The notes under the pieces are model-generated. The model was not told where the DNA came from. It saw only the letters and a program-made list of their open reading frames with translations, and did no database searches. From an uncultured Planctomycetota bacterium (GTDB lineage: Bacteria > Planctomycetota > Planctomycetia > Isosphaerales > Isosphaeraceae): a stretch of DNA of 64,000 nucleotides. Position 1 is the first letter of the stretch, and the number at the start of each line of letters is the position of its first letter. Position numbers and translations under genes: made by a program. Shown here piece by piece: positions 8,326 through 62,108 of the stretch. The stretch covers positions 215,998 to 279,997 of the forward strand of contig CAWJTV010000047.1 in NCBI GenBank assembly GCA_963845755.1, read 5' to 3'.

Positions 8326-8521
8326 AAGCGGAAAAAGGGGACATAACGAATATTGTGTGGACCCGGCTTTCTCTGTATGATGGGGCGATGCCCAGAACCG
8401 CACGAGCTTCGGTCGCTGACACCAAGCGGAAAAAGGGGACATAACGAATATTGTGTGGACCCGGCTTTCTCTGTATGATGGGGCGATGCCCAGAACCGCA
8501 CGAGCTTCGGTCGCTGACACC
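8326..8521. repeat. Perfect 98-bp tandem duplication of the RAYT 5' end
   Basis: 8326-8423 and 8424-8521 are identical (AAGCGGAAAAAGGGGACATAACG...GCTGACACC). Confidence 0.9.
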
Positions 8522-39118: not shown

Positions 39119-39164
39119 AGTACACCCAATTGGATTCGAACCAGCAACCTTCGGTTCGGTAGGC
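39119..39164 (-). repeat. Degenerate copy of the tRNA-Arg(ACG) 3' half (old att scar)
   Basis: 41/46 identical to 40136-40181; contains the GGTTCGAATCC T-arm on the minus strand. Confidence 0.8.
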
Positions 39165-39339
39165 CTGTGACGATTCTGAGAAGTCTAATGGACAATAGGA
39201 TGCAATTCTTGTTCGAGTAAAGACTTCCGCACGAAACACTTCCCGGGCCTGGCTCTTGCCACTACCAGAATTTGCAGGCTTTCCGGTCGGTTACAAGGGA
39301 TTCTCGGATTAAAAATTCATATTCAGACTTATCATATCT

Positions 39340-40135: not shown

Positions 40136-40181
40136 AGTACACCCGACTGGATTCGAACCAGTAACCTTCGGTTCCGTAGAC
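40136..40181 (-). repeat. tRNA-Arg(ACG) 3'-half duplication, putative att boundary of the genomic island
   Basis: Minus strand GTCT-ACG-GAACCGAAGGTTACTGGTTCGAATCCAGTCGGGTGTACT: anticodon loop, T-arm and 3' acceptor strand; no 5' half upstream. Confidence 0.85.
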
Positions 40182-42279: not shown

Positions 42280-42609
42280 GTGAATCTTGCCTTCGAAACG
42301 CTGACCATCCGGGCGCTCTGTGAGTGCCAGTCGAAGGCCGAACATGCGTTCGGGATCAAGGCCGCAGCCCGTCTTCGGGAGCGACTGGCTGATATCCGTG
42401 CCGCCGACTGCGTATATGATCTCGTCGCAGGCCGGCCGCGCGAGATTCAGGGAGGCCGGCATCGGCACTACGCGGTGGACCTGGCCAATGGCTACCGACT
42501 CGTTTTTTGCGCCAACCACGTCCGGATACCAGTCAACAAGATGGATCGAGTCGATTGGTCCAGGATAACCCGGGTCAGAATCCTCAAGATCGAGGTCGGC
42601 CATGGTTGA
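42280..42609 (+). CDS. HigB/RelE-like toxin (plasmid maintenance killer type)
   Basis: MNLAF...KAAARLRERLADIRAA...GRPREIQGGRHRHYAVDLANGYRLVF...IRILKIE pattern; overlaps the downstream antitoxin by 8 bp. Confidence 0.75.
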   Translation: MNLAFETLTIRALCECQSKAEHAFGIKAAARLRERLADIRAADCVYDLVAGRPREIQGGRHRHYAVDLANGYRLVFCANHVRIPVNKMDRVDWSRITRVRILKIEVGHG

Positions 42610-43694
42610 CGACACCCCGTTCTCGCCCGATTGGGTCTCACCGCCGGGTGCCACGATAGCCACCCTCCTGGAGGAGCGCGGCGCCACGCCCGTCGAGCTC
42701 GCTGGCTGGATAGAGCGGTGCCAGCCGACATCAAGGACCTCCTCGAAGGCCGTGCCGAGATCACCTCCGAGATGGCAAGGCGGCTCGCCCGCGCACTCGG
42801 CGCGTCTGAGGCGTTCTGGACTCGGCGCGAGTCCCAATACCGTGCGGACCTGGCCCGGCTGCACCAGGAGGCTTCGCTGCCCGAGAGCTTCAGGTGGCTG
42901 AGTGAGATCCCCGTGAAGGACATCGAGCGGTGGGGGTGGATCGAACCGCTCGCCAACCCGACGGCCGCGGTGGTGGCTTGCCTTCGGTTCTTCGGCGTGC
43001 CCAGCGTCAGGGCATGGCGAGACGTCTACAGCGACGCACTGTCCGCGGCGTACCGGACCTCACCGACCTACACGTCGGAACCGGGGGCTGTCGCCGCCTG
43101 GATTCGCCAGGGCGAGATCGCGGCAGCCTCGATTGAATGCGGCCCATGGAACCCCGAATGTCTCCGGCGCGAGCTCACTTCCCTGCGCGAATTGACCCGC
43201 GCGAAAGACCCGGAGGAATTCCTGCCCGAGCTGGTCAGCGCTGCGCAGCCTGCGGCATCGCCGTCGTCGTCCGGCGCGCGCCGAAGATGTGCCGGGCGAG
43301 CGGAGCGGTGCGCTTTCTCTCCCTGACGCGGCCGATGATTCTCCTCAGCTTCCGATACCTCTCGGACGATCAATTCTGGTTCACCTTCTTCCACGAGGCC
43401 GGTCACCTGGTGCTGCACGGTGACCGCTGCATCTTTCTGGAAGGAGACGACACACTCTCGACTGAGGAGGAAGACGAGGCCAATGCCTTCGCCGCGAATG
43501 TCCTGATCCCGCCGGAACTCCAGGCCGAGATGCTCCGACTCCCCCTCAACGGGAGGGCAGTCATGCGGTTCGTGCGCAAGGTGGGGATCTCGCCGGGCAT
43601 CGTCGTGGGCCAACTCCAGCACTACGGCTGTTTCCGGCGGAACCAGTTGAACAACCTCAAGCGGCGGTACACATGGGTGGAAGACGGACAGTGA
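42602..43694 (+). CDS. HigA-type HTH antitoxin fused to ImmA/IrrE metallopeptidase (two frameshifts)
   Basis: SPPGATIATLLEERG..HTH..ITSEMARRLARALG..FW; AWIRQGE; ASGAVRF, DDQFWFTFFHEAGHLVLH (HExxH), EDEANAFA, ISPGIVVGQLQH. Confidence 0.85.
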
Positions 43695-43698
43695 AGCG

Positions 43699-44640
43699 TT
43701 AGCCGCTGAACCGGCTGAATTTGCCTGGGCACTTCTGCCAGTTGCAGAGCGAGTCCTCCAGCACCTGCATCCCCAGGCTCAGCCGTTCCTCCAACTGCAC
43801 CAGCCATGTGTCGAGTTGCCGGGGCGTGGCGCGGCCGGAGGTCGGGCTCCCGAGTAACAAGAGGCGGGCTCCACTGAGGGGGCCGGTCGCGCCGATCATG
43901 TAGGTGGATCCCGGTTCGATGGGCGCCAGGCCGAGTTTCCCGATCATCGTCAGATAGTCAAACCGCGCCAGCCGGCCGAACGAGGCGACTGCCCTCATCG
44001 AGCGGTAGAGCGCGTCAAAGGCACGACGGCCATCGCCGGTGGACGCCACAGCGTCTCGGAAGAGGTCCGCATGGGTTCTGGGCGAGCCAACCCAGGCGAC
44101 GTAGCTCACCACCGCCTCGCCTGTGCCCTTAGGCTTGTGAGCGTCGAGACTCTGGTATTTGCGGTGATTCCCAAAGCGGCGGACGCCACAACCGTACTTC
44201 AGCACATTCTGATTGACCGCGAGCCATGCGCGGTAGCCTTCTGGATCGGCACTGGTCCGGGCCCAATCCCATCGGTTCGGGCCGCCGAGGGCGCCGTAGA
44301 CGTCGCGGATGAACCGCCATTCGGACTCCTTGCTTCAGCCGAAATGCACCCAGAGGAAGACGAGCCAGCAGGCCTCGTCATGTTGCCCTCGACGAGCGTG
44401 GAGAGCCGCCGCTTTGATCGGGTAGAACCGATCGCTCGCTGGGTCGGCCCGATTGTCGCTGATGTCGCGCTCCAAGACGCGGGCGACGTAGCGGACGCGA
44501 TGGATGCTCGCCATCACCTGCTTGATGAACGCCTCTCGGTTCGCCGGCGCCTGGATGCCGGGGAGCGGATGGACCGTCTCGTGGAACGTCCCCAGGGCCG
44601 CGTCGATCCGGCTGACTTCCGCTACGTCTCTGGGACTCAC
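43699..44640 (-). CDS. aGPT-Pplase clade 3-like (alpha-helical HhH-glycosylase fold) protein, with in-frame TGA at 44335-44337
   Basis: ORFs 44335..44640 and 43699..44205 are in the same frame; EACWLVFLWVHFG, FGNHRKY, FGRLARFDYL, ATGPLSGARLL, MQVLEDSLCNWQK; family assigned from recalled motifs. Confidence 0.7.
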
Positions 44641-45450
44641 TCGAGCACCTCACTCACCACGTGCGTGATCCAATCGCGTATCGCGTCCTTCACCTCCGAG
44701 GTGACGCCATAACTGCTCTGGAGGTTGTGGTTGAATCCGAGTACGAGCACGGGACGGCGGAGGTCTACGCCAGCCAGCCGGCATACCGTCCCGCGATACG
44801 CGAAGCCGGCGACGCCCGTCCCGGCCCGCCTCGGCAGGGTCCACCCGTCCATCGCCACGCGCTCCAAGGCTGTGCCCGCTGCCCGTTGCAGGCTCTCGAT
44901 GACCGTTCTGCCGTTGACGATGATCAGGCGGATGGGCGAGTCGCGCAGCAGCGAGCCGAGCGTGTCGCCCGCCATGTCCCGGAGTGCCGAGCGCCGATGC
45001 GGCGCCAGGTCCGTCCACTTGCGCCTGGTCGCATAGGGGATCAGGTCGAGGTGGCACGCGCCGGCGAACATGCCGTAGTACGAAGCCCTGGTCCCGGCGA
45101 TGAGCAGATCCAGGCTCCGAAACCAATCGTTGTAAGGGTTGCGGGTGAAGTATCGTCGGCAGCTATCCTCGATCAGCTCGATGTGCCCGGCATCCGCGTC
45201 GGACCATCGCGCGAGCCCCAGCGACCTCAGGGTGTGGAGACGCCGCGCCGCCCCCTGCAGTTCGTTTCCCTCCTCGTTCGACGAATTCGCGATTGCTCGG
45301 GTTCAGGCCGAGCGTCGCCACGAGTGAAGTTGACGGGTCCCCGAACGCGGGCGCCGGGCAACTCCATGGGATCATGTCGGTCGTCGCGGCGGAGGGGGAA
45401 TCCATATGTCGGATTAGTTGTGAGAGCATCTCGATCATCGTGCGGGCCAT
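44637..45450 (-). CDS. Uracil-DNA glycosylase superfamily-like protein (frameshift near 45280)
   Basis: FGDP..VATLGLNPSNREF (UDG motif A-like GxNP), YF..NPYNDWF, HLDLIPYAT, IRLIIVNG, LGFNHN (motif B-like); stop overlaps the next gene (GTGA). Confidence 0.6.
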
Positions 45451-45473
45451 GCTGTTGGACTAATTCGAGGCGG

Positions 45474-46506
45474 CTACCGGTCCTCGTCGCCGCCCTCTTC
45501 CGCCTGAACTTCGAAAAAGGGAAGGCTAGGCTGGCCCGAGCGCGGCACGGTACGCCCCGCCCTTTCCCGCTTGGTGATGTATTCCTTGTAGACGGGGTGG
45601 ACCATCGCACGCCGGATTCTCCGGATCGCGTCGCGCTCACCCCTCTTGCTGTGGGCGAAGATCTCGAGCAGGCGGACGATGTCACGCCAGTAGGGCGGCA
45701 GGGCCCTCACCGAACTGTCGAGGGCGCGCCCTTCACGGATCGCGGCCTCCGTCGCGCACCACCGTCTCGATTGGCGGGCGGGGGTCGAAGGGGGGCATTG
45801 CGGGCATCTCGACGAACTGTGTTGACTGCCACCCTTCGTCCAAGTACTGCCGCGCCGCCTTGATGTCGTCGTCGTAGAGGTGGAGGCTGCCGACGAAGTG
45901 GGTGTATACGCCCGGCTCATGCCCGAGGATTCTCGCCACGATCTCCTGGATCATGGTGAAGGAGAACACATCGTGGGGGAGGCCCTTGAAGGCATCGTTC
46001 GACCGCATGGTCGTGGCCAGCTCCACCAGGCCGTCGCGGACCATGAACTGCAAGGTGCAGGTGCAGGGTATCTCCCGGTGATGGTCGCGGATGTCCTCGG
46101 CGTCGAACAACTGGATCACCGCCCGCCTTGATCCCGGATTCCTCGTCAGCAGGTCGAGGACGTGCTCGACCTGGTTGTTGCCGTGGTGGCCGAACAGCCT
46201 GGGCCCGTAAGCGCCGTATATCGTCGCCCCGTCCTCGGATTCATCCAGGTATTGATCCAGATAATAGCTGATGAACTTCAGGTCGTTGCTCTTAGCTAGG
46301 TACCAGAGCAGCTCGCCCAACGCGCTGAAGATCTTGCCCTTCTTCTCGGTGTGGCTGAGGCGGGCCCTCGGGTTCGTGAGCTTGAGCAGGAGGCTTCTGA
46401 TCTCTCGGGTCTCGCCGCGCGACGCCCTGTTGCGCGCGCCACGCCTGACGAGCTTGTCCAGCACGCGATGCATCATGTCGTCGAGGGTCTTCGCAGTGAT
46501 GTACAT
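45474..46506 (-). CDS. Thymidylate synthase homologue, dCMP hydroxymethylase-like (frameshift near 45755)
   Basis: GELLWYL, YGAYGPR, SRRAVI, IPCTCTLQF (catalytic Cys), MRSNDAFKGLPHD, GSLHLY; extra helical C-terminal domain. Confidence 0.88.
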
Positions 46507-46800
46507 GGAGATGCCCGTCGTCGATTACCGCTGAGCGTCGGCAGCGTCCGGCCGAGAGGGCACGTCGTATCGCCCGGCCTCCGCGCGGGCACCCCGCCGA
46601 ACACGACCACGAATCAAGCGCCGCGTCACAGTATCAGTCTAACACGCTCGCCGGTTGTTTGGCCTGGGCCTTCCGGCCCGGGAAGCCGTCGCGACGATCG
46701 TCGGGTATAATGTGTAGCGGACACGCGAGTCGCGACCGAGGACGGCCGAGGAGGTGGATGCTCACCGCTGTCGGGCCGAATGGTCGGATTGGAGGCCAGC

Positions 46801-47148
46801 ATGGACCCGAAATGGCGGCGCCGATCCTGGGACATCCATCGGCGGTTCGTCGAGCTGTCCCGCGCCAAGGGAAGCCTTACTACCGAAGACGAGGTCATAA
46901 ACTTCCTTGCGCTCGCCGTCTGCGGCGAGGCGGGCGAGCTAGCCAACCTGATCAAGAAGCGGTGGCAGGGCGACAACGTGGACCGCGATCTCCTACGGGA
47001 CGAGATTGCGGATATCCGCATCTACCTCGAGCACCTCGCTCATCACCTGGAGATCGATATCGACGAGGCGTGCAACGCCAAGCTGAACGTCGTCGCTGGC
47101 CGGCTCGCGGCAAAGGAGCAGGCCGCAGCTGGCGGGAATGGGCGATAG
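46801..47148 (+). CDS. MazG-like (all-alpha) nucleotide pyrophosphohydrolase
   Basis: LAVCGEAGELANLIKK...DEIADIRIYL..LA..LEIDIDEA..AKL, i.e. the ExxE...ExxD metal motif. Confidence 0.85.
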   Translation: MDPKWRRRSWDIHRRFVELSRAKGSLTTEDEVINFLALAVCGEAGELANLIKKRWQGDNVDRDLLRDEIADIRIYLEHLAHHLEIDIDEACNAKLNVVAGRLAAKEQAAAGGNGR

Positions 47149-48031
47149 CCGGGAGCGGGCGACTCAACTCCTTACCGACTCCAGAGGTTCGCCAGCGTGG
47201 TCAGGTTCAGGCCGCGGGGGAAGGCGGACCGGCCCGAGCAGCCCTGCTGATAATTCCAGCAAGACGGCGTCTGCCGCTCGGGATCTTTCATGGGCGAGGT
47301 GACCTAGATGGTATGGATATGAAGTCCGGCCTCCCGTGGTCGGCGCGATACGCATCTGGTCCCAGTGTCTTGACAACGTCCCCAGGAAAATGCGCCGAGA
47401 AACTCCGGATCTACGTTGTCAATTAACCGCGGCCACCCGCGTAGTACCCAGTCAAATTTGTGTTTGTCGGGTTGGATCCGCCTGGCTGTCATGATTCCTC
47501 ATGGGCGTCACGCAACAGTATGCTCTGCCGAGCCGACCTGAGAATCGAATTTTGACTAGGTAGTACAGTTACAATCTCTGAAGATACGGCATTCTTGACC
47601 TGGGCCGCCACGTTGCCGTGCTAGACGGCCGCACAGCGGCGATAGAGGCCGTAGTAACGATCCGACCGACCCTGCTGATCGTTCCGGGCCGGGATGTCGC
47701 CCACCCGTCCTTGGGTAAGATTCGCGGCCAATCGCCGACGTGGCCGCCTATACGCAAGTGTGACTCGTGGGACAGAAGACCATCGAATTCTTAATGCGAC
47801 CAGGGTATGCATGAACGGCGAAGTCCGGATGGCCAGGTTCCAATTAGATTGAATCGCCGCCCTTTATCGGAAGGTCGTCTACTTCGGAAAAACCCCAGTT
47901 CTCTTCGATCAAAGAAGTTACAACTCAAGAGTATTGGTAATACTAAACTCGACGCGCCCAGTAGGATTTGTGTAACAATCAAGCGATGGGCACTTTGATT
48001 GTCGAGCATACCAAAACAAGGAGTGAGTCCG

Positions 48032-50443
48032 ATGGCGGTGTATGCTCTCTGGAACAATAAAGGTGGCGTCGGAAAGAGCTATCTGACTTTTAGATTGCTT
48101 GCGAGTATGCAAGGACCCACCCAGGACAGAAGGTACTAGTCATCGATCTGTGCCCGCAAGCAAACTCTTCGGGAATGCTGCTTGGTGGCATGATTCAAGG
48201 CGAGGCGGAATTGAACAAGTTGTCTTCCGCCGAACCTCGGCGCACGATTGCAGGATACATACGGGAGCGTCTCTCGAGTCCCTATTATAGTCCGGGTAGT
48301 GGCGCAAGCTACCTACTTCAGATCCATACACGAAACCAACTTGTCCCTGACAACCTCTTCTTGGTTCCGGGAGACGAGGAGCTCGAAGTGCTGGCCGCGC
48401 GAGTGTCCAACGCCACTACCCCAGGCCCGGACGGCGCGTGGGCGAAGGTTCATTTCTGGATTCGGGACATGATGAACGACATTCAGCAACGTTGGCACGT
48501 AGAGGAATTGACCGTCTTTGTCGATTGCAATCCCAGCTTCGGGATCTACACCGAAATGGCGCTGCTGGCATCTGACCGGCTCATCATTCCATTCTCTGCG
48601 GATGGTTCATCTCGAAGGGCGGTCCGCACCGTCTTATCGCTGGTTTTCGGTGACGTGCGACGCCCCGGAGCCGAACGTTCGGAATTCTTTCGACGATCGG
48701 AGGAATTCCGCCTGCGGGTTCCACGTATCTACTGCTACGTCGGCAATCGAATGACGCAAGCGGAATACCAGTCTGCGAATGCATTTCGTACCGTCGTGAA
48801 TGAAATCGGGGCGGAGATCTACTCTGTATGGAACGCGAATGCAAACGCCTTTCAGGTGCATCCGGCGGGTACACCCGCACCGAGAACGCAGAGAGGATTC
48901 AAGGAAATGTTTCAAGCAGAGATCGTCGATGCCAACACGGCATCAGTGGTCTCAAGCGCCATGGGAATCCCGCTCGACCAGTTGAATGCCGGGACTTATG
49001 ACTTTTTTGATAAGGCGAACGGCAGAAATTAATTTACCTGCAAGACAGGCGTTTTCGGCTTGATCGTGATGTCATACTTCGGTAACGCCGCCAAACGCTC
49101 CAGGCGCGCTTCGTACTCCTTCATCTCCTTGGCCGGAACTCGTACGCCATCGGGATACTCGCCATGGAGCCGCTTCACCGTCGGGTGCCGACCCTTCCAG
49201 ACCATCCGGAGGCGCATTGCAGCACGACCTTCAGACAGGTCAATAAGACGCCGTTCCATTTCTTCTCCAACGCCGACCAGCAGCGTTCGATCGGATTGTA
49301 TTTGCTGTGATAAGGGGGATAGTACACCAAGCGAATCTCCAACCCCGACCCGTCGGCGAATTCCACCATCCGTTTCAAGAACTGGGTCCGCCGGCCTGAG
49401 TTCTTCGGGCCGTTGTCGACGTAGATCACCAAGCGTTTGATATGTCCCAAACCCGACCGGACCTCCAGCCACCACATCCTCAAGGCATCGACCCAGGCAT
49501 CGCTGGTCTCGCGCTCGCCAAACAGAAGCATCAACGCGCCCGTTGCCATCATCAGGACGCCGAAGGGGACCAGTTTCTCCTTGGCGGGCGGATCATGGTC
49601 CCATCCCTTGGTCACTTCACCGTCGGCGTCAGTCCGGGTTTTTTCCCCCCCGAGCGTAATCGCCCAATCCCACCTTGGCTTTGGTATCCATGGAGATCTC
49701 CAGAGTTTCCGGATCGGCCCGCGCCTGTTCCCGTACGGTCTTGATGTTGGCGAAGATCGCGTCGGTCTCTTTGGTCTTCTTCAGCGGTTTGCCCTTCTGA
49801 ATCCGCTTGAGCCGATAGTTCATCCGATTGAGGATGTCCCGCATCGTGCGGCTCGCTGGGCAACTCCTCGAGGGCATAGCCCTTGGCGATCAGGGCGTCG
49901 CGCACCTCAGCCGCCGACAAGTTGGTGTACCGCCGCGGCGACTTGAGTTCCGGATCGGCGTGCGAATGGGGTCCCACGATGGCGCGGATATCGGTCGCCA
50001 ATTGGGGATCCTTGTCTTCGCTGCGCGGCCGGCCCCGTGCGGCAAAATCCTCCAGACACCGGAGGCCTTGCCGGGCCTCATGGAGTCCTTTCTCGACCGT
50101 CTCGCGCCCCCAGCCGAAACGGCGTTCGGCTTTGCGAGCGCTGCCGTTGCATAATTCGGTAGCGACCTCGGCGAGGAACAAGCGGCGCTGGTATCCGGTC
50201 AGGCGCTCGGCGCCGGAACGAAGCAAGTCATCAACGCAGGCGGCGGACGTGTCCATGAGCGTGACCCCCCTCCTGAGACAAGACAATCCTCAAGGAACAG
50301 TCTCGCATCCCGCGGGATGGCCGGAAACCTCAGTTCTTGGGTAGGATTCCACCCACCGATCGCCTAAGCAAATTCGTGTGAATCAATCCCAGCTCGATAG
50401 ACTGCAACCCAACATGCGCAAGTTGGTCGAGATGATCGAGTGA
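48032..50443 (+). pseudogene. ParA/Soj-family ATPase interrupted by an ISAzo13-family element
   Basis: WNNKGGVGKS, VIDLCPQANSS, FVDCNPS; removing 49014-50367 restores ...DFFDKQIRVNQSQLDRLQPNMRKLVEMIE* ending at 50443. Confidence 0.85.
49014..50364 (-). mobile_element. ISAzo13-family insertion sequence (transposase about 49029..50256)
   Basis: Ends GGCGAACGG / CCGATCGCC with flanking TAA duplication; ISMDTKAKV, YVDNGP, YYPPYHSKYNPIERCW; G7A6 slippery site near 49640. Confidence 0.88.
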
Positions 50444-59297: not shown

Positions 59298-59937
59298 ATG
59301 GCGCAGGCTACGGAAGAGGTCGCGGACATTGCCGAAAGTGTTGAGTCTTTCGATGTTCCGCCCGTAACAGACCTCGTGGAGCCGGTCCAGGACCAGCTCA
59401 CTCCGACCGAGCCCGTCGAACAGGTCGCGCCGATCCAGGATGAAGTCATTCCGACTGAGCCCATCGCGGAGGTCGCGCTGATCCAAGACGAGCTCACCAC
59501 GGCCGCCGCCGCCGAGCAGCTCGCGCCGATCCAGGACGAAGTCATCCCGGCCGCGGCCGTCGACCAGGCCACACCGCTCCAAGACGAAGTCGTTCCGGCC
59601 GCGGCCATCGAGCAGATCTCGCCTGTCGCCGACGAGGCCGTTCCGACTGAGACCGCGGAGGAGGTGGCGCCGGTTGTGGCCGACGCCATTCAGTCTGAGG
59701 TGCTGGAGAAGGCCGCACCGGTAGCGGACGAGGTCGTTCCGACCGAAACGGTAGAGCAGGTCACGCCGGTCATGGACGAAGTCATCCCGACCGCGGCTGT
59801 CGAACAGGTCACGCCGGTTATGGACGAAGTCAATCCGAACGAGGCCATCGAGCACATCCGCCGGCCCAGGAGGAAGTCGTTCCGGCTGAGGCGGTCGAGG
59901 AGGTCACGCCGGAACACGCAGAGGTTGTCTCGGTGTA
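59298..59937 (+). CDS. Acidic protein of about 11 tandem 16-aa repeats; ends uncertain (frameshifts)
   Basis: Units such as EQVAPIQDEVIPTEPI / EQVTPVMDEVIPTAAV (48-bp period). Confidence 0.6.
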
Positions 59938-60274: not shown

Positions 60275-62108
60275 ACGAATGGCACTAGCTTTAAATCGCA
60301 AAGTGGACATTGGTGGATAAACGTCGTAATCGAAGGTACGATCACTCGTCGCCGGCGCAGGGCCCTGCAACCCTGGGCGACGATCCGGTGGGTCACGTCC
60401 CACCAGGAAGGCCAAGCGGGTCGCCGGGGAGGGACGGGGGGCGGTGCCGACGCCCAGCGAGTTCTCTAGGCGCCGGAGCTACTTGACCTGCGCCCGCCGG
60501 CACCGCCGGAGGGGGCGAAGACGGTGCTGTTATGACTCACAGGACATGCGCCCTTCGCGCCGCAAGGACTGACAACGACCCACCCTCAACAGGGGCTCAC
60601 TCAGAACCATTTCGAGCGATCCTTCGCCTGTTTGGTCGCGGCTCGCGGTTCGTGCAGGTGGGCCCCCGGCTTCCGCCGGCGCTTCCGTGCCCGCGGCTCC
60701 CACCGCCCCGGACGGTCGCCGACCCGATGGTAGGCGACCACCGCCAGCAGCGCCGTCGATCAGCGCCGGACGATCCTCGGGCCGCGCCGCCTCGATCTTC
60801 GGCGCGAACGCCGTCACCGCCTGCTTGGCCCCCTTGAAGCTCACCTCCCGAGGCTCGATCCCGACCTCGGCGGCGGCGACAGCCATCACCGTCCGCAGCA
60901 GGTTATACGCCAGCAGGTGCGCCCAGATCTCCTTCTGGACCATCTCCGGCGTCTTGCATCGCAGGACGTCCATCTGCATCACCGACTTGATCGAGCGGAT
61001 GTCAACTTCCCCGGACCACCTCCGCTCGAACAGGTCGCCGATCTGCTTGCCGTCGATCGCCGCGTCCAGCAGCGTGGTGGCGACCTGGAACTGTTCGGCG
61101 CGGTTGTCCTTGTCGCGGGCATCGACGCTCACCTGGCGCATCAGCAGGCTCTTCGGGTAGCGGCGGTACTGCTCCCCGGTCATCCGCGCGGCTTGTTGGG
61201 CCGCTGCCAGGTGATGACGTCGCCATCGGGCCGGGCCTCCACCGTCTCGGCTCCCCACCCGCTCCGCCTGCACGCGGGCGACCAACTCGACGCCGAGGTC
61301 GCGCAATTCGCAGGCGAGGAAGTAGTTGTCGAACAGGGCGTCGGCCAGGACCACGTCGCCGGGCGACAGCGCCGCGTACATCCGCCGCAGCAGCGTGGTC
61401 TCGCCGGTCCCCTTGCCGGCATACGCGGCGATGGCCAGGTCGTGGCAGGCGCCGGTCGCCAGCGAGAGCAAGACGGTGACCCGGGCCAGCGGGAAGCCGA
61501 CTCCGGGCTGCTGTGTCGGCGGCTGCGGGTAGGCCGCCTGGTTCTCCGGCGTGTCGGGCATGGAGACGTGCGACCCGTCGACGATGAACACGCTCCGCCG
61601 GTTCCACTTCCACTCGGCGGCGGCCGCGGCCTGCAACTCCGCGGCGGTCCGCCGCGCCAGCGTGCTCAGGACGGCGGTGGGGAGGCGGCCGCGGGCGTTG
61701 CAGTAGCTGGCCGTGTTGGGCGAGCAGGTATCCAGGCCGCTGGCCGCCCGATGGGCGATGATCCGCGCCACGGCGTCGCGGCAGGAGTGGTCGTCGCTGA
61801 GGACCTGCGAGAGGAAGCCCCAGGTGGTCGTGACGGGGTTGAACAGCCGGTCGCGGTAGCGGACGCCGTGCTCGTCGAGGGCGTCGCGGATGCGGGATTC
61901 GGTCAGGACGTCGGCGAACGGCAGGCCCTCGTTGCGCACGAAGCGGGCGCGGAGCTGATCGAGGCTCATCCTGGGCTCGGCCTCGGCGATCCGGGGCGGG
62001 ACGATCGCGAGGAATTCAGTAGGGTCGATTCGCAGAGTGATCATACCCTATATTACGATGCCTTATGGTTCGATGTTCACTTTACAATTTAAAGCTAGTG
62101 CCATTCGT
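60275..62108 (-). mobile_element. IS4-family insertion sequence (transposase about 60600..62044, frameshifted)
   Basis: 36-bp TIRs (33/36) starting ACGAATGGCACTAGCTTTAAAT; flanking GTCGTCGG; IVDGSHVSMPDTPENQ, LADALF, RWSGEVDIRSIK, RCKTPEMVQKEIWAHLLAYNL. Confidence 0.9.

Follow-up and report, generated by a model that had tools for sequence, protein, structure and literature searches.

We analyzed a 64,000-nucleotide stretch of DNA (hereafter the window) from an uncultured Planctomycetota bacterium of the Isosphaeraceae (GenBank assembly GCA_963845755.1, contig CAWJTV010000047.1, positions 215,998 to 279,997), which forms the end of contig C47 in a 14.3-Mb, 49-contig genome. Six-frame translation shows three tightly packed minus-strand genes, encoding a thymidylate synthase (TS) homolog, a protein resembling uracil-DNA glycosylase (UDG), and an aGPT-Pplase clade 3 protein (Pplase3), with a 23-bp gap between the first two and a GTGA overlap between the last two (Table 1). 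A pair of genes of toxin-antitoxin (TA) type runs convergently toward this operon, and a MazG-like gene diverges from it. The original prediction, which read these arrangements correctly from the letters alone, proposed TS, UDG-like, Pplase3, and MazG-like proteins as a candidate base modification or antiphage system. The first three belong together in other genomes as well; MazG falls outside the conserved unit, and the TA pair, which the prediction had left beyond its limits, is part of it.

The window copy is broken, with four frameshifts and one in-frame TGA within about 4.5 kb. The assembly is itself error-prone: frame changes occur in 7/22 control genes (0.34 per kb), and the housekeeping thyA is split. 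Set against this control rate, four frameshifts have a P of 0.07 and five breaks a P of 0.02, and so sequencing error and gene decay are both possible. Functional inference was drawn from intact homologs and not from the broken window copy.

Table 1. Features of the window (positions count from its first nucleotide)
Feature	Position	Strand	Remarks
MilA-like TS-fold enzyme, predicted dCMP 5-hydroxymethylase	45474..46506	-	PF00303, E 2e-29; frameshift near 45770
UDG-fold glycosylase, Brig3 homolog, predicted excision of 5-hydroxymethylcytosine (5hmC)	44637..45450	-	Optional member; frameshift near 45280
aGPT-Pplase clade 3, helix-hairpin-helix (HhH) fold	43699..44640	-	PF18746/PF18724; Glu-x3-Cys; in-frame TGA 44337-44335
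HigA-like XRE helix-turn-helix fused to IrrE/ImmA zinc peptidase (HEAGH)	42602..43694	+	PF06114; PD-lambda-2B relative; two frameshifts, near 42710 and 43220
HigB/RelE-like small protein, partner of the XRE-peptidase	42280..42609	+	51% to intact homolog
MazG-like nucleoside triphosphate pyrophosphatase, accessory	46801..47148; longest open reading frame (ORF) from 46780	+	Weak Pfam MazG matches, below cut-off
Attachment site (att) remnant, 3' end of tRNA-Arg(ACG), left island boundary	40138..40181	-	44/44 identity to contig C7 tRNA
Degenerate second att copy	39121-39165		40/45 identity to contig C7 tRNA-Arg(ACG)
ParA-like ATPase	48028-49032		In island; frameshifted
ISAzo13-type transposase	49178-50286		In island; broken
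DDE transposase	60533-62044		In island
48-bp tandem repeat, about 11 copies	59376-59912		Within acidic ORF; no Pfam match
Exact 98-bp tandem duplication	8326-8521		Assembly artifact possible; adjoining ORF may be REP-type transposase

Across other genomes the conserved unit consists of TS-(UDG-like)-Pplase3 facing an XRE-IrrE-HigB-like pair, in an almost invariable gene order. A scan of GTDB genomes anchored on Pplase3 alone gave 67 loci from 143 pattern matches; among those with enough flank to be counted, TS is present in 60/63, the UDG-like gene in 46/63, XRE-IrrE in 62/64, and the HigB-like gene in 55/61. In a metagenome scan with an alignment of the UDG-like protein, of which the best 80 of 533 matches were taken without dereplication, TS is present in 65/67, Pplase3 in 70/71, XRE-IrrE in 54/55, and the HigB-like gene in 37/37. 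The grouping seen at one locus recurs from both anchors; on the tree its hosts fall into at least 11 phyla, and actinobacterial plasmids carry it besides. The MazG-like gene, first taken for a core member resembling T4 gp56, is ruled out as such by its rarity (1/58 GTDB and 2/34 metagenome loci, and the two metagenome cases, L123 and L124, look like one sequence). Pairwise identities are correlated among the five proteins (Spearman 0.48-0.80; 0/300 permutations as high), as expected of genes that travel together, which is no proof of interaction.

The unit is patchy and mobile. It was found on 10 plasmids and in 19 IMG/VR loci, and well-supported branches of a quick tree show four or more gains or losses of its glycosylase. 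It is rare in the phylum of the window, where a search of 400 genomes found one other above the PF18746 cut-off, with another architecture. None of 50,697 cultured-phage records matched Pplase3, and a Pseudomonas copy had no match in Escherichia coli genomes at the sensitivity of megablast. In the window, the unit genes lie 2-7 kb inside the att copy, as the original prediction had proposed, and the intact tRNA lies outside the window, on contig C7, with an integrase after it. Because the att copy is the 3' end of that tRNA-Arg(ACG), with the integrase beside it, the genes sit within an integrated element, and we infer that contigs C7 and C47 join. Taken together, these results define a real, widespread, and uncharacterized five-gene unit.

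The best solved relative of the intact TS homolog is MilA (E 1e-47 versus 1e-16 for ThyA). A housekeeping ThyA was ruled out: ThyA Asn177 is replaced by Asp, the score is below all NCBIfam cut-offs, and a separate thyA lies elsewhere in the genome, on contig C32. The catalytic Cys and the Asp at Asn177 are present in 31/31 aligned rows (29 from the family and 2 MilA-like), including the window copy, in which Cys146, the Asp at Asn177, Asp169, Ser167, Arg126', and Glu at the Leu143 position are all present. All 29 family rows carry Ser at MilA Ala176 and Arg at MilA Lys133, whereas the 2 MilA-like rows keep Ala and Lys; the A176S/K133R form of MilA was reported to lose activity on CMP and retain it on dCMP (PMC5175136), so that the unit TS stands in the state of the dCMP-only double mutant. 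The Leu143 position is D or E in 25/29 family rows and S or N in 4, and an acidic residue there has been described as a hydroxymethylase signature, with Asp169Asn as that of hydroxylases (PMC13326640). A 5-hydroxy-dCMP synthase of the RB69 gp48 type was ruled out, since Asp169 is kept in 31/31 rows. The Asp at Asn177, the Ser/Arg deoxy determinants, and the acidic Leu143 position back the earlier reading of a dCMP-type TS, and the enzyme is predicted to convert dCMP to 5-hydroxymethyl-dCMP (hm-dCMP). It shares with MilA and T4 gp42 the TS fold, including the C-terminal helical domain of MilA, the cytosine-type Asp, and the acidic Leu143 position; in contrast to their settings, the unit has no gp1 kinase, core dCTPase, glucosyltransferase, or mildiomycin genes.

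A search for long TS homologs returned 17 proteins: 16 are TS fused to a Brig3-like glycosylase as a single chain of 589-636 amino acids (P0002-P0016 and P0018; one, named from Klebsiella variicola, has 25 members), and one is a TS-Pplase3 fusion (P0017). None of the 17 contains a kinase domain. Two loci on viral contigs that resemble actinomycete integrative elements (L002, L004) encode hydroxymethylases of MilA type (Ala/Lys, ribo-preferring). At a single locus (L011:5132-5677), a gene of the nucleoside 2-deoxyribosyltransferase family, to which MilB belongs, lies divergent from TS.

The UDG-like gene of the window has no Pfam match. The AlphaFold model of an intact homolog (predicted local distance difference test score [pLDDT], 95.9) aligns with Thermotoga maritima UDG (Z 13.9, root mean square deviation [rmsd] 3.2 Å, 180 aligned), which confirms the UDG fold proposed earlier. 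Its characterized relative Brig3 (GenBank PX942695) is reported to excise 5hmC and to block T4 with bare 5hmC, and to need N50, E55, W100, D127, R197, and N225, with E55 reading the hydroxymethyl group (bioRxiv 10.64898/2026.02.25.707755). We took the Brig3 sequence from the version-1 supplement (PMC13160076) and matched it to the family by eye, motif by motif. Among 13 positions of the Brig3 pocket and DNA contacts, 11 (F31, N50, P51, S52, E55, Y97, W100, F101, H125, D127, and G229, with F31, Y97, F101, and H125 forming the aromatic pocket) are invariant in 41/41 rows, R197 is kept in 40/41, and the window copy conforms to this pattern. The UDG-like protein is accordingly predicted, from these residues, to excise 5hmC. 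The unit resembles the Brig3-BapA system in pairing a UDG-fold glycosylase that has the same catalytic and 5hmC-reading residues with a partner enzyme that would increase its substrate; BapA unmasks 5hmC already present in phage DNA, whereas the partner in the unit would make the base from dCMP. Flank clustering gave no recurrent neighbor as a bapA candidate, and no search aimed at BapA was made. Brig3-like glycosylases also form a large sister family (P0104-P0165, about 245-260 amino acids), several of whose members are fused to Pfam-less domains.

The Pfam family PF18746 reportedly stems from Iyer 2013, which probably noted the neighborhood. It matches both halves of Pplase3 (E 1e-19 and 3e-73; 71.5 and 246.9 bits, cut-off 25). 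Structure comparison of the Pplase3 model (pLDDT 94.8) ranks the amino-acid:DNA transferase PUGT (PaMx11 gp46) first (Z 10.8, rmsd 4.3 Å, 220 aligned), followed by Qng1 and AlkA-type glycosylases (Z 9.7-9.4), all HhH proteins, and so confirms the predicted HhH fold. For a helical protein these scores are modest by themselves; it is Pfam and ESM Atlas that place Pplase3 among transferases. With Foldseek alone the model gave no significant match, and PDB sequence searches with the UDG-like, Pplase3, and HigB-like profiles returned nothing credible. A Glu-x3-Cys pair is conserved in the alignment (E in 59/59 rows, C in 58/59). PUGT is described as a base-flipping DNA enzyme whose chemistry displaces a leaving group on the C5 methylene, with a proposed attack on C6 by Cys247 beside Glu243 (PMC11472151), and the Glu/Cys pair is reported as essential in M6 gp51 and ViI gp247 (PMC8989533). 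Because Pplase3 keeps this catalytic pair of the amino-acid:DNA transferases, it probably performs C5-methylene chemistry and not base excision, contrary to the suggestion that it is a second glycosylase. Its likely reaction is with 5-hydroxymethyl pyrimidines in DNA, through a covalent intermediate, and it may then trap, decorate, or erase 5hmC. With PUGT and M6 gp51 it shares the HhH fold and Glu-x3-Cys, but it is a bacterial clade 3 protein that stands beside a cytosine enzyme and lacks the 5-hydroxymethyluracil (5-hmU) DNA kinase that provides a phosphate leaving group. The unit does not match the amino-acid:DNA transferase pathway itself: the TS is cytosine type and not dUMP type, and no kinase occurs among recurrent neighbors or in our flank scan, which covered 150 of the 194 nearby ORFs at 62 loci.

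The XRE-peptidase matches PADLOC PD-Lambda-2_B (E 1e-19 in the window; 5e-23 to 2e-28 for intact homologs) as well as HigA structures and, weakly, CapP, and its HExxH motif is invariant. Its small partner has no Pfam, NCBIfam, or PDB sequence match; its ESM Atlas neighbors are named killer or HigB-like, with PF05015 on 36% of one cluster. In PD-lambda-2, which has the same order of a HigB-like gene followed by an XRE-IrrE peptidase, the peptidase is reported to be toxic and the HigB-like protein to neutralize it (PMC9519451). The pair in the unit differs in facing a base modification operon and in the lack of a visible third, P4-antitoxin-like gene: the HigB-like gene has no PADLOC match, and flank clustering gave no third recurrent gene. 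The link of the pair to the TS-Pplase3 operon is one-way. Among XRE-peptidase relatives at >=300 bits, surveyed with flanks of only 1.5 kb at genome loci, 19/44 adjoin Pplase3 and TS and 25/44 have no adjoining Pplase3, and among weaker relatives 0/50 adjoin it. No shared operator was found upstream of the TS and HigB-like genes (mean best 14-mer match, 10.88 versus 10.84; 76 loci). At L183:689-1432, a related HigB/XRE-peptidase pair faces another ORF, by eye an HhH glycosylase, that has no Pfam match.

In line with the earlier view that this is no named defense system, TS, UDG-like, and Pplase3 have no PADLOC 2.0 match at E<=0.1 (2023 library; window pieces and the intact locus L012). The scanned flanks contain restriction-modification enzymes, SIR2-HerA, a GajB-like helicase, IetS, a retron reverse transcriptase, and Shedu, along with many integrases and transposases; Mrr-like nucleases flank some loci, and there is no nucleotide kinase. 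A DUF4031 gene adjoins the unit in 11 loci (L001, L012, L043, L045, L050, L057, L074, L075, L077, L078, L101), mostly on the TS strand and immediately upstream of that gene. A NudG/MutT-like Nudix gene that matches the PADLOC candidate PDC-S07 does so in 9 (L022, L024, L035, L037, L056, L060, L065, L087, L113); pyrophosphatases of two unrelated folds, MazG being the other, are recruited beside the unit.

The occurrence, in many unrelated bacteria, of a mobile block that seems to pair a maker of a phage-type modified base with a remover of that base suggests a system that may mark invading DNA and then destroy it. We put at about an even chance that the unit is a mobile tag-and-destroy antiphage system, in which host-made hm-dCMP would enter replicating phage DNA and be met there by excision or trapping. 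First, the TS would, as its residues predict, make hm-dCMP from dCMP, which may be plentiful as phages degrade host DNA or hydrolyze dCTP and could be augmented by the MazG- or NudG-like accessories; mutant studies report that T4 recycles the products of host DNA breakdown into its own DNA (PMC6071114). Second, and this is the weakest step, hm-dCMP would be raised to the triphosphate by a phage deoxynucleoside monophosphate (dNMP) kinase or by a weak activity of host kinases, so that most of the mark would land on phage DNA, which replicates fast. Phage dNMP kinases probably take hm-dCMP as a substrate more readily than host kinases do. Because the unit has no kinase of its own, hm-dCMP would reach DNA mainly by these routes and its flux into DNA should be small; with a related TS that makes 5-hydroxycytosine, the modified base was reported at trace level alone and as a clear peak with a phage kinase (PMC13326640). 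Third, the Brig3-like glycosylase is predicted to cut out 5hmC and leave abasic sites, which would also affect phages with bare 5hmC. Fourth, the Pplase3 cysteine may attack C6 of 5hmC and so trap or alter the marked DNA, a role that would explain why Pplase3 is retained where the glycosylase is lost. Finally, the XRE-peptidase/HigB-like pair could retain the unit in the cell or add a suicide back-up. In a sharper version, which we hold only tentatively, bacteria would put a recognition mark of their own on unmodified phage DNA: the phage kinase and polymerase fed with hm-dCMP would themselves be the switch between self and nonself, the glycosylase would excise the mark, and the cysteine-dependent HhH enzyme would cross-link to it, inverting the logic of restriction-modification.

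The tag-and-destroy idea, already raised by the original prediction, gains from the Brig3-type 5hmC pocket and from the natural TS-glycosylase fusions: a self-made base that is removed by a fused enzyme is useless to the cell if it neither ends up in foreign DNA nor kills at a given signal. Several results weigh against it. The window copy may be a pseudogene. The glycosylase is missing in 17/63 GTDB and 16/19 IMG/VR loci, so that the clearest effector is optional. Its Brig3 motifs are common to a broad family (1,215 clusters at E<=1e-10), and the Brig3 wedge Asn225 is replaced by Gln in 41/41 rows (position matched by eye); with a comparison made by eye, the 5hmC specificity thus hangs on one characterized relative. 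The hhalign alignment of Pplase3 with PUGT covers only the Glu/Cys motif (E243/C247; 15 columns, probability 3.7%). Defense-island enrichment is not supported by the raw count, since PADLOC matches near the unit (27/150 ORFs) do not exceed those in random stretches of the window genome (24/118), a comparison that used heuristic gene calls and one large, defense-rich control genome and in which generic domains inflate both counts. One control region, L170 (G000:C36 near 207-212 kb), has PADLOC matches to retron type XIII components (reverse transcriptase, SWIM, WGR). Lastly, the tagging model leaves the sparing of host DNA unexplained.

Abortive infection or addiction is the first alternative, and we consider it unlikely. 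The TS would poison all DNA with 5hmC, and Pplase3, using cysteine chemistry like that of a C5-methyltransferase, would be the antidote that erases or masks it; on infection the peptidase would remove Pplase3, and death would follow by the glycosylase or host type IV nucleases. The near-constant company of TS, Pplase3, and peptidase fits this, as do the Mrr-like nucleases at some loci and the toxicity reported for the peptidase of PD-lambda-2 (PMC9519451). However, the XRE-peptidase pair also stands alone in the majority of its close relatives (25/44), and glycosylase-less loci have no conserved replacement nuclease in their flanks.

Nucleotide depletion is less likely again. Here hm-dCMP would be a dead end, or be cleaved as MilB cleaves hmCMP, starving the phage of dCTP and folate carbon. 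The lack of a nearby kinase, the TS-glycosylase fusions (which fit channeling), the nucleotide hydrolase Qng1 among the top Pplase3 folds (Z 9.7), and the MazG/Nudix accessories all agree with this; yet the glycosylase retains a polar wedge as well as R197 and G229, which contact DNA in Brig3, and the top fold match of Pplase3, PUGT, flips bases in DNA.

Self-modification, in which TS and Pplase3 would place a hypermodified cytosine in host DNA, protectively or as in restriction-modification, and the glycosylase would clear unfinished intermediates and bare phage 5hmC, seems improbable to us. It is consistent with the transferase Glu/Cys pair of Pplase3 and with the one TS-Pplase3 fusion. Real substitution levels would call for a kinase or dCTPase that the unit lacks, though, no restriction partner is conserved, and the enzyme fused to the mark maker has a pocket of the type that removes the mark, which tells against the self-marking option of the original prediction. 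Least probable of all is action on cytosine-modifying phages only, with Pplase3 stripping or trapping C5 decorations as BapA does, the glycosylase excising 5hmC, and the TS competing for phage dCMP or serving as decoy: Brig3-BapA is reported to act so on T-even phages and the leaving-group chemistry of PUGT would suit it, but it accounts poorly for glycosylase-less loci, and an active hydroxymethylase helps, not hinders, T4-type phages.

Elsewhere, at G000:C41:590256-593662, about 36 tRNA genes are arrayed on one strand.

Our literature search, with most subscription journals outside its coverage, found no paper on the TS-(UDG-like)-Pplase3/XRE-IrrE-HigB unit. The words "thymidylate" and "hydroxymethylase" do not occur in the main text of the Brig3-BapA preprint, nor does "thymidylate" in the available part of the Dag/Brig2 preprint. 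In the DefensePredictor study (PMC13092281), aGPT-Pplase, MazG, and UDG domains are among predicted, unvalidated systems, TS and aGPT-Pplase/UDG domains, of types that our unit shares, are flagged as defensive, and a 327-amino-acid TS in table S4 has, by eye, the unit TS motifs; the unit may already be pictured there (aGPT-Pplase system, Fig. 6F). The validated system DS-4 of that study differs, with another TS accompanied by kinases, TIR, and NMAD genes.

The unit resembles glycosylase-based defense, with the likely twist that it makes its own target base, a new principle if shown. Known defense glycosylases read marks made by the phage; a self-made mark, if true, would extend defense to unmodified phages, and escape from it would be difficult. 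The idea is directly testable through the single-chain fusions and through intact copies in hosts that can be cultured, such as those of Pseudomonas nitroreducens (L045) and Janthinobacterium (L043), which include the glycosylase, and of Paraburkholderia graminis (L057), which lacks it. If it holds, it would give aGPT-Pplase clade 3 its first function, possibly as a new cysteine-based 5hmC-reactive enzyme that would be useful for 5hmC mapping.

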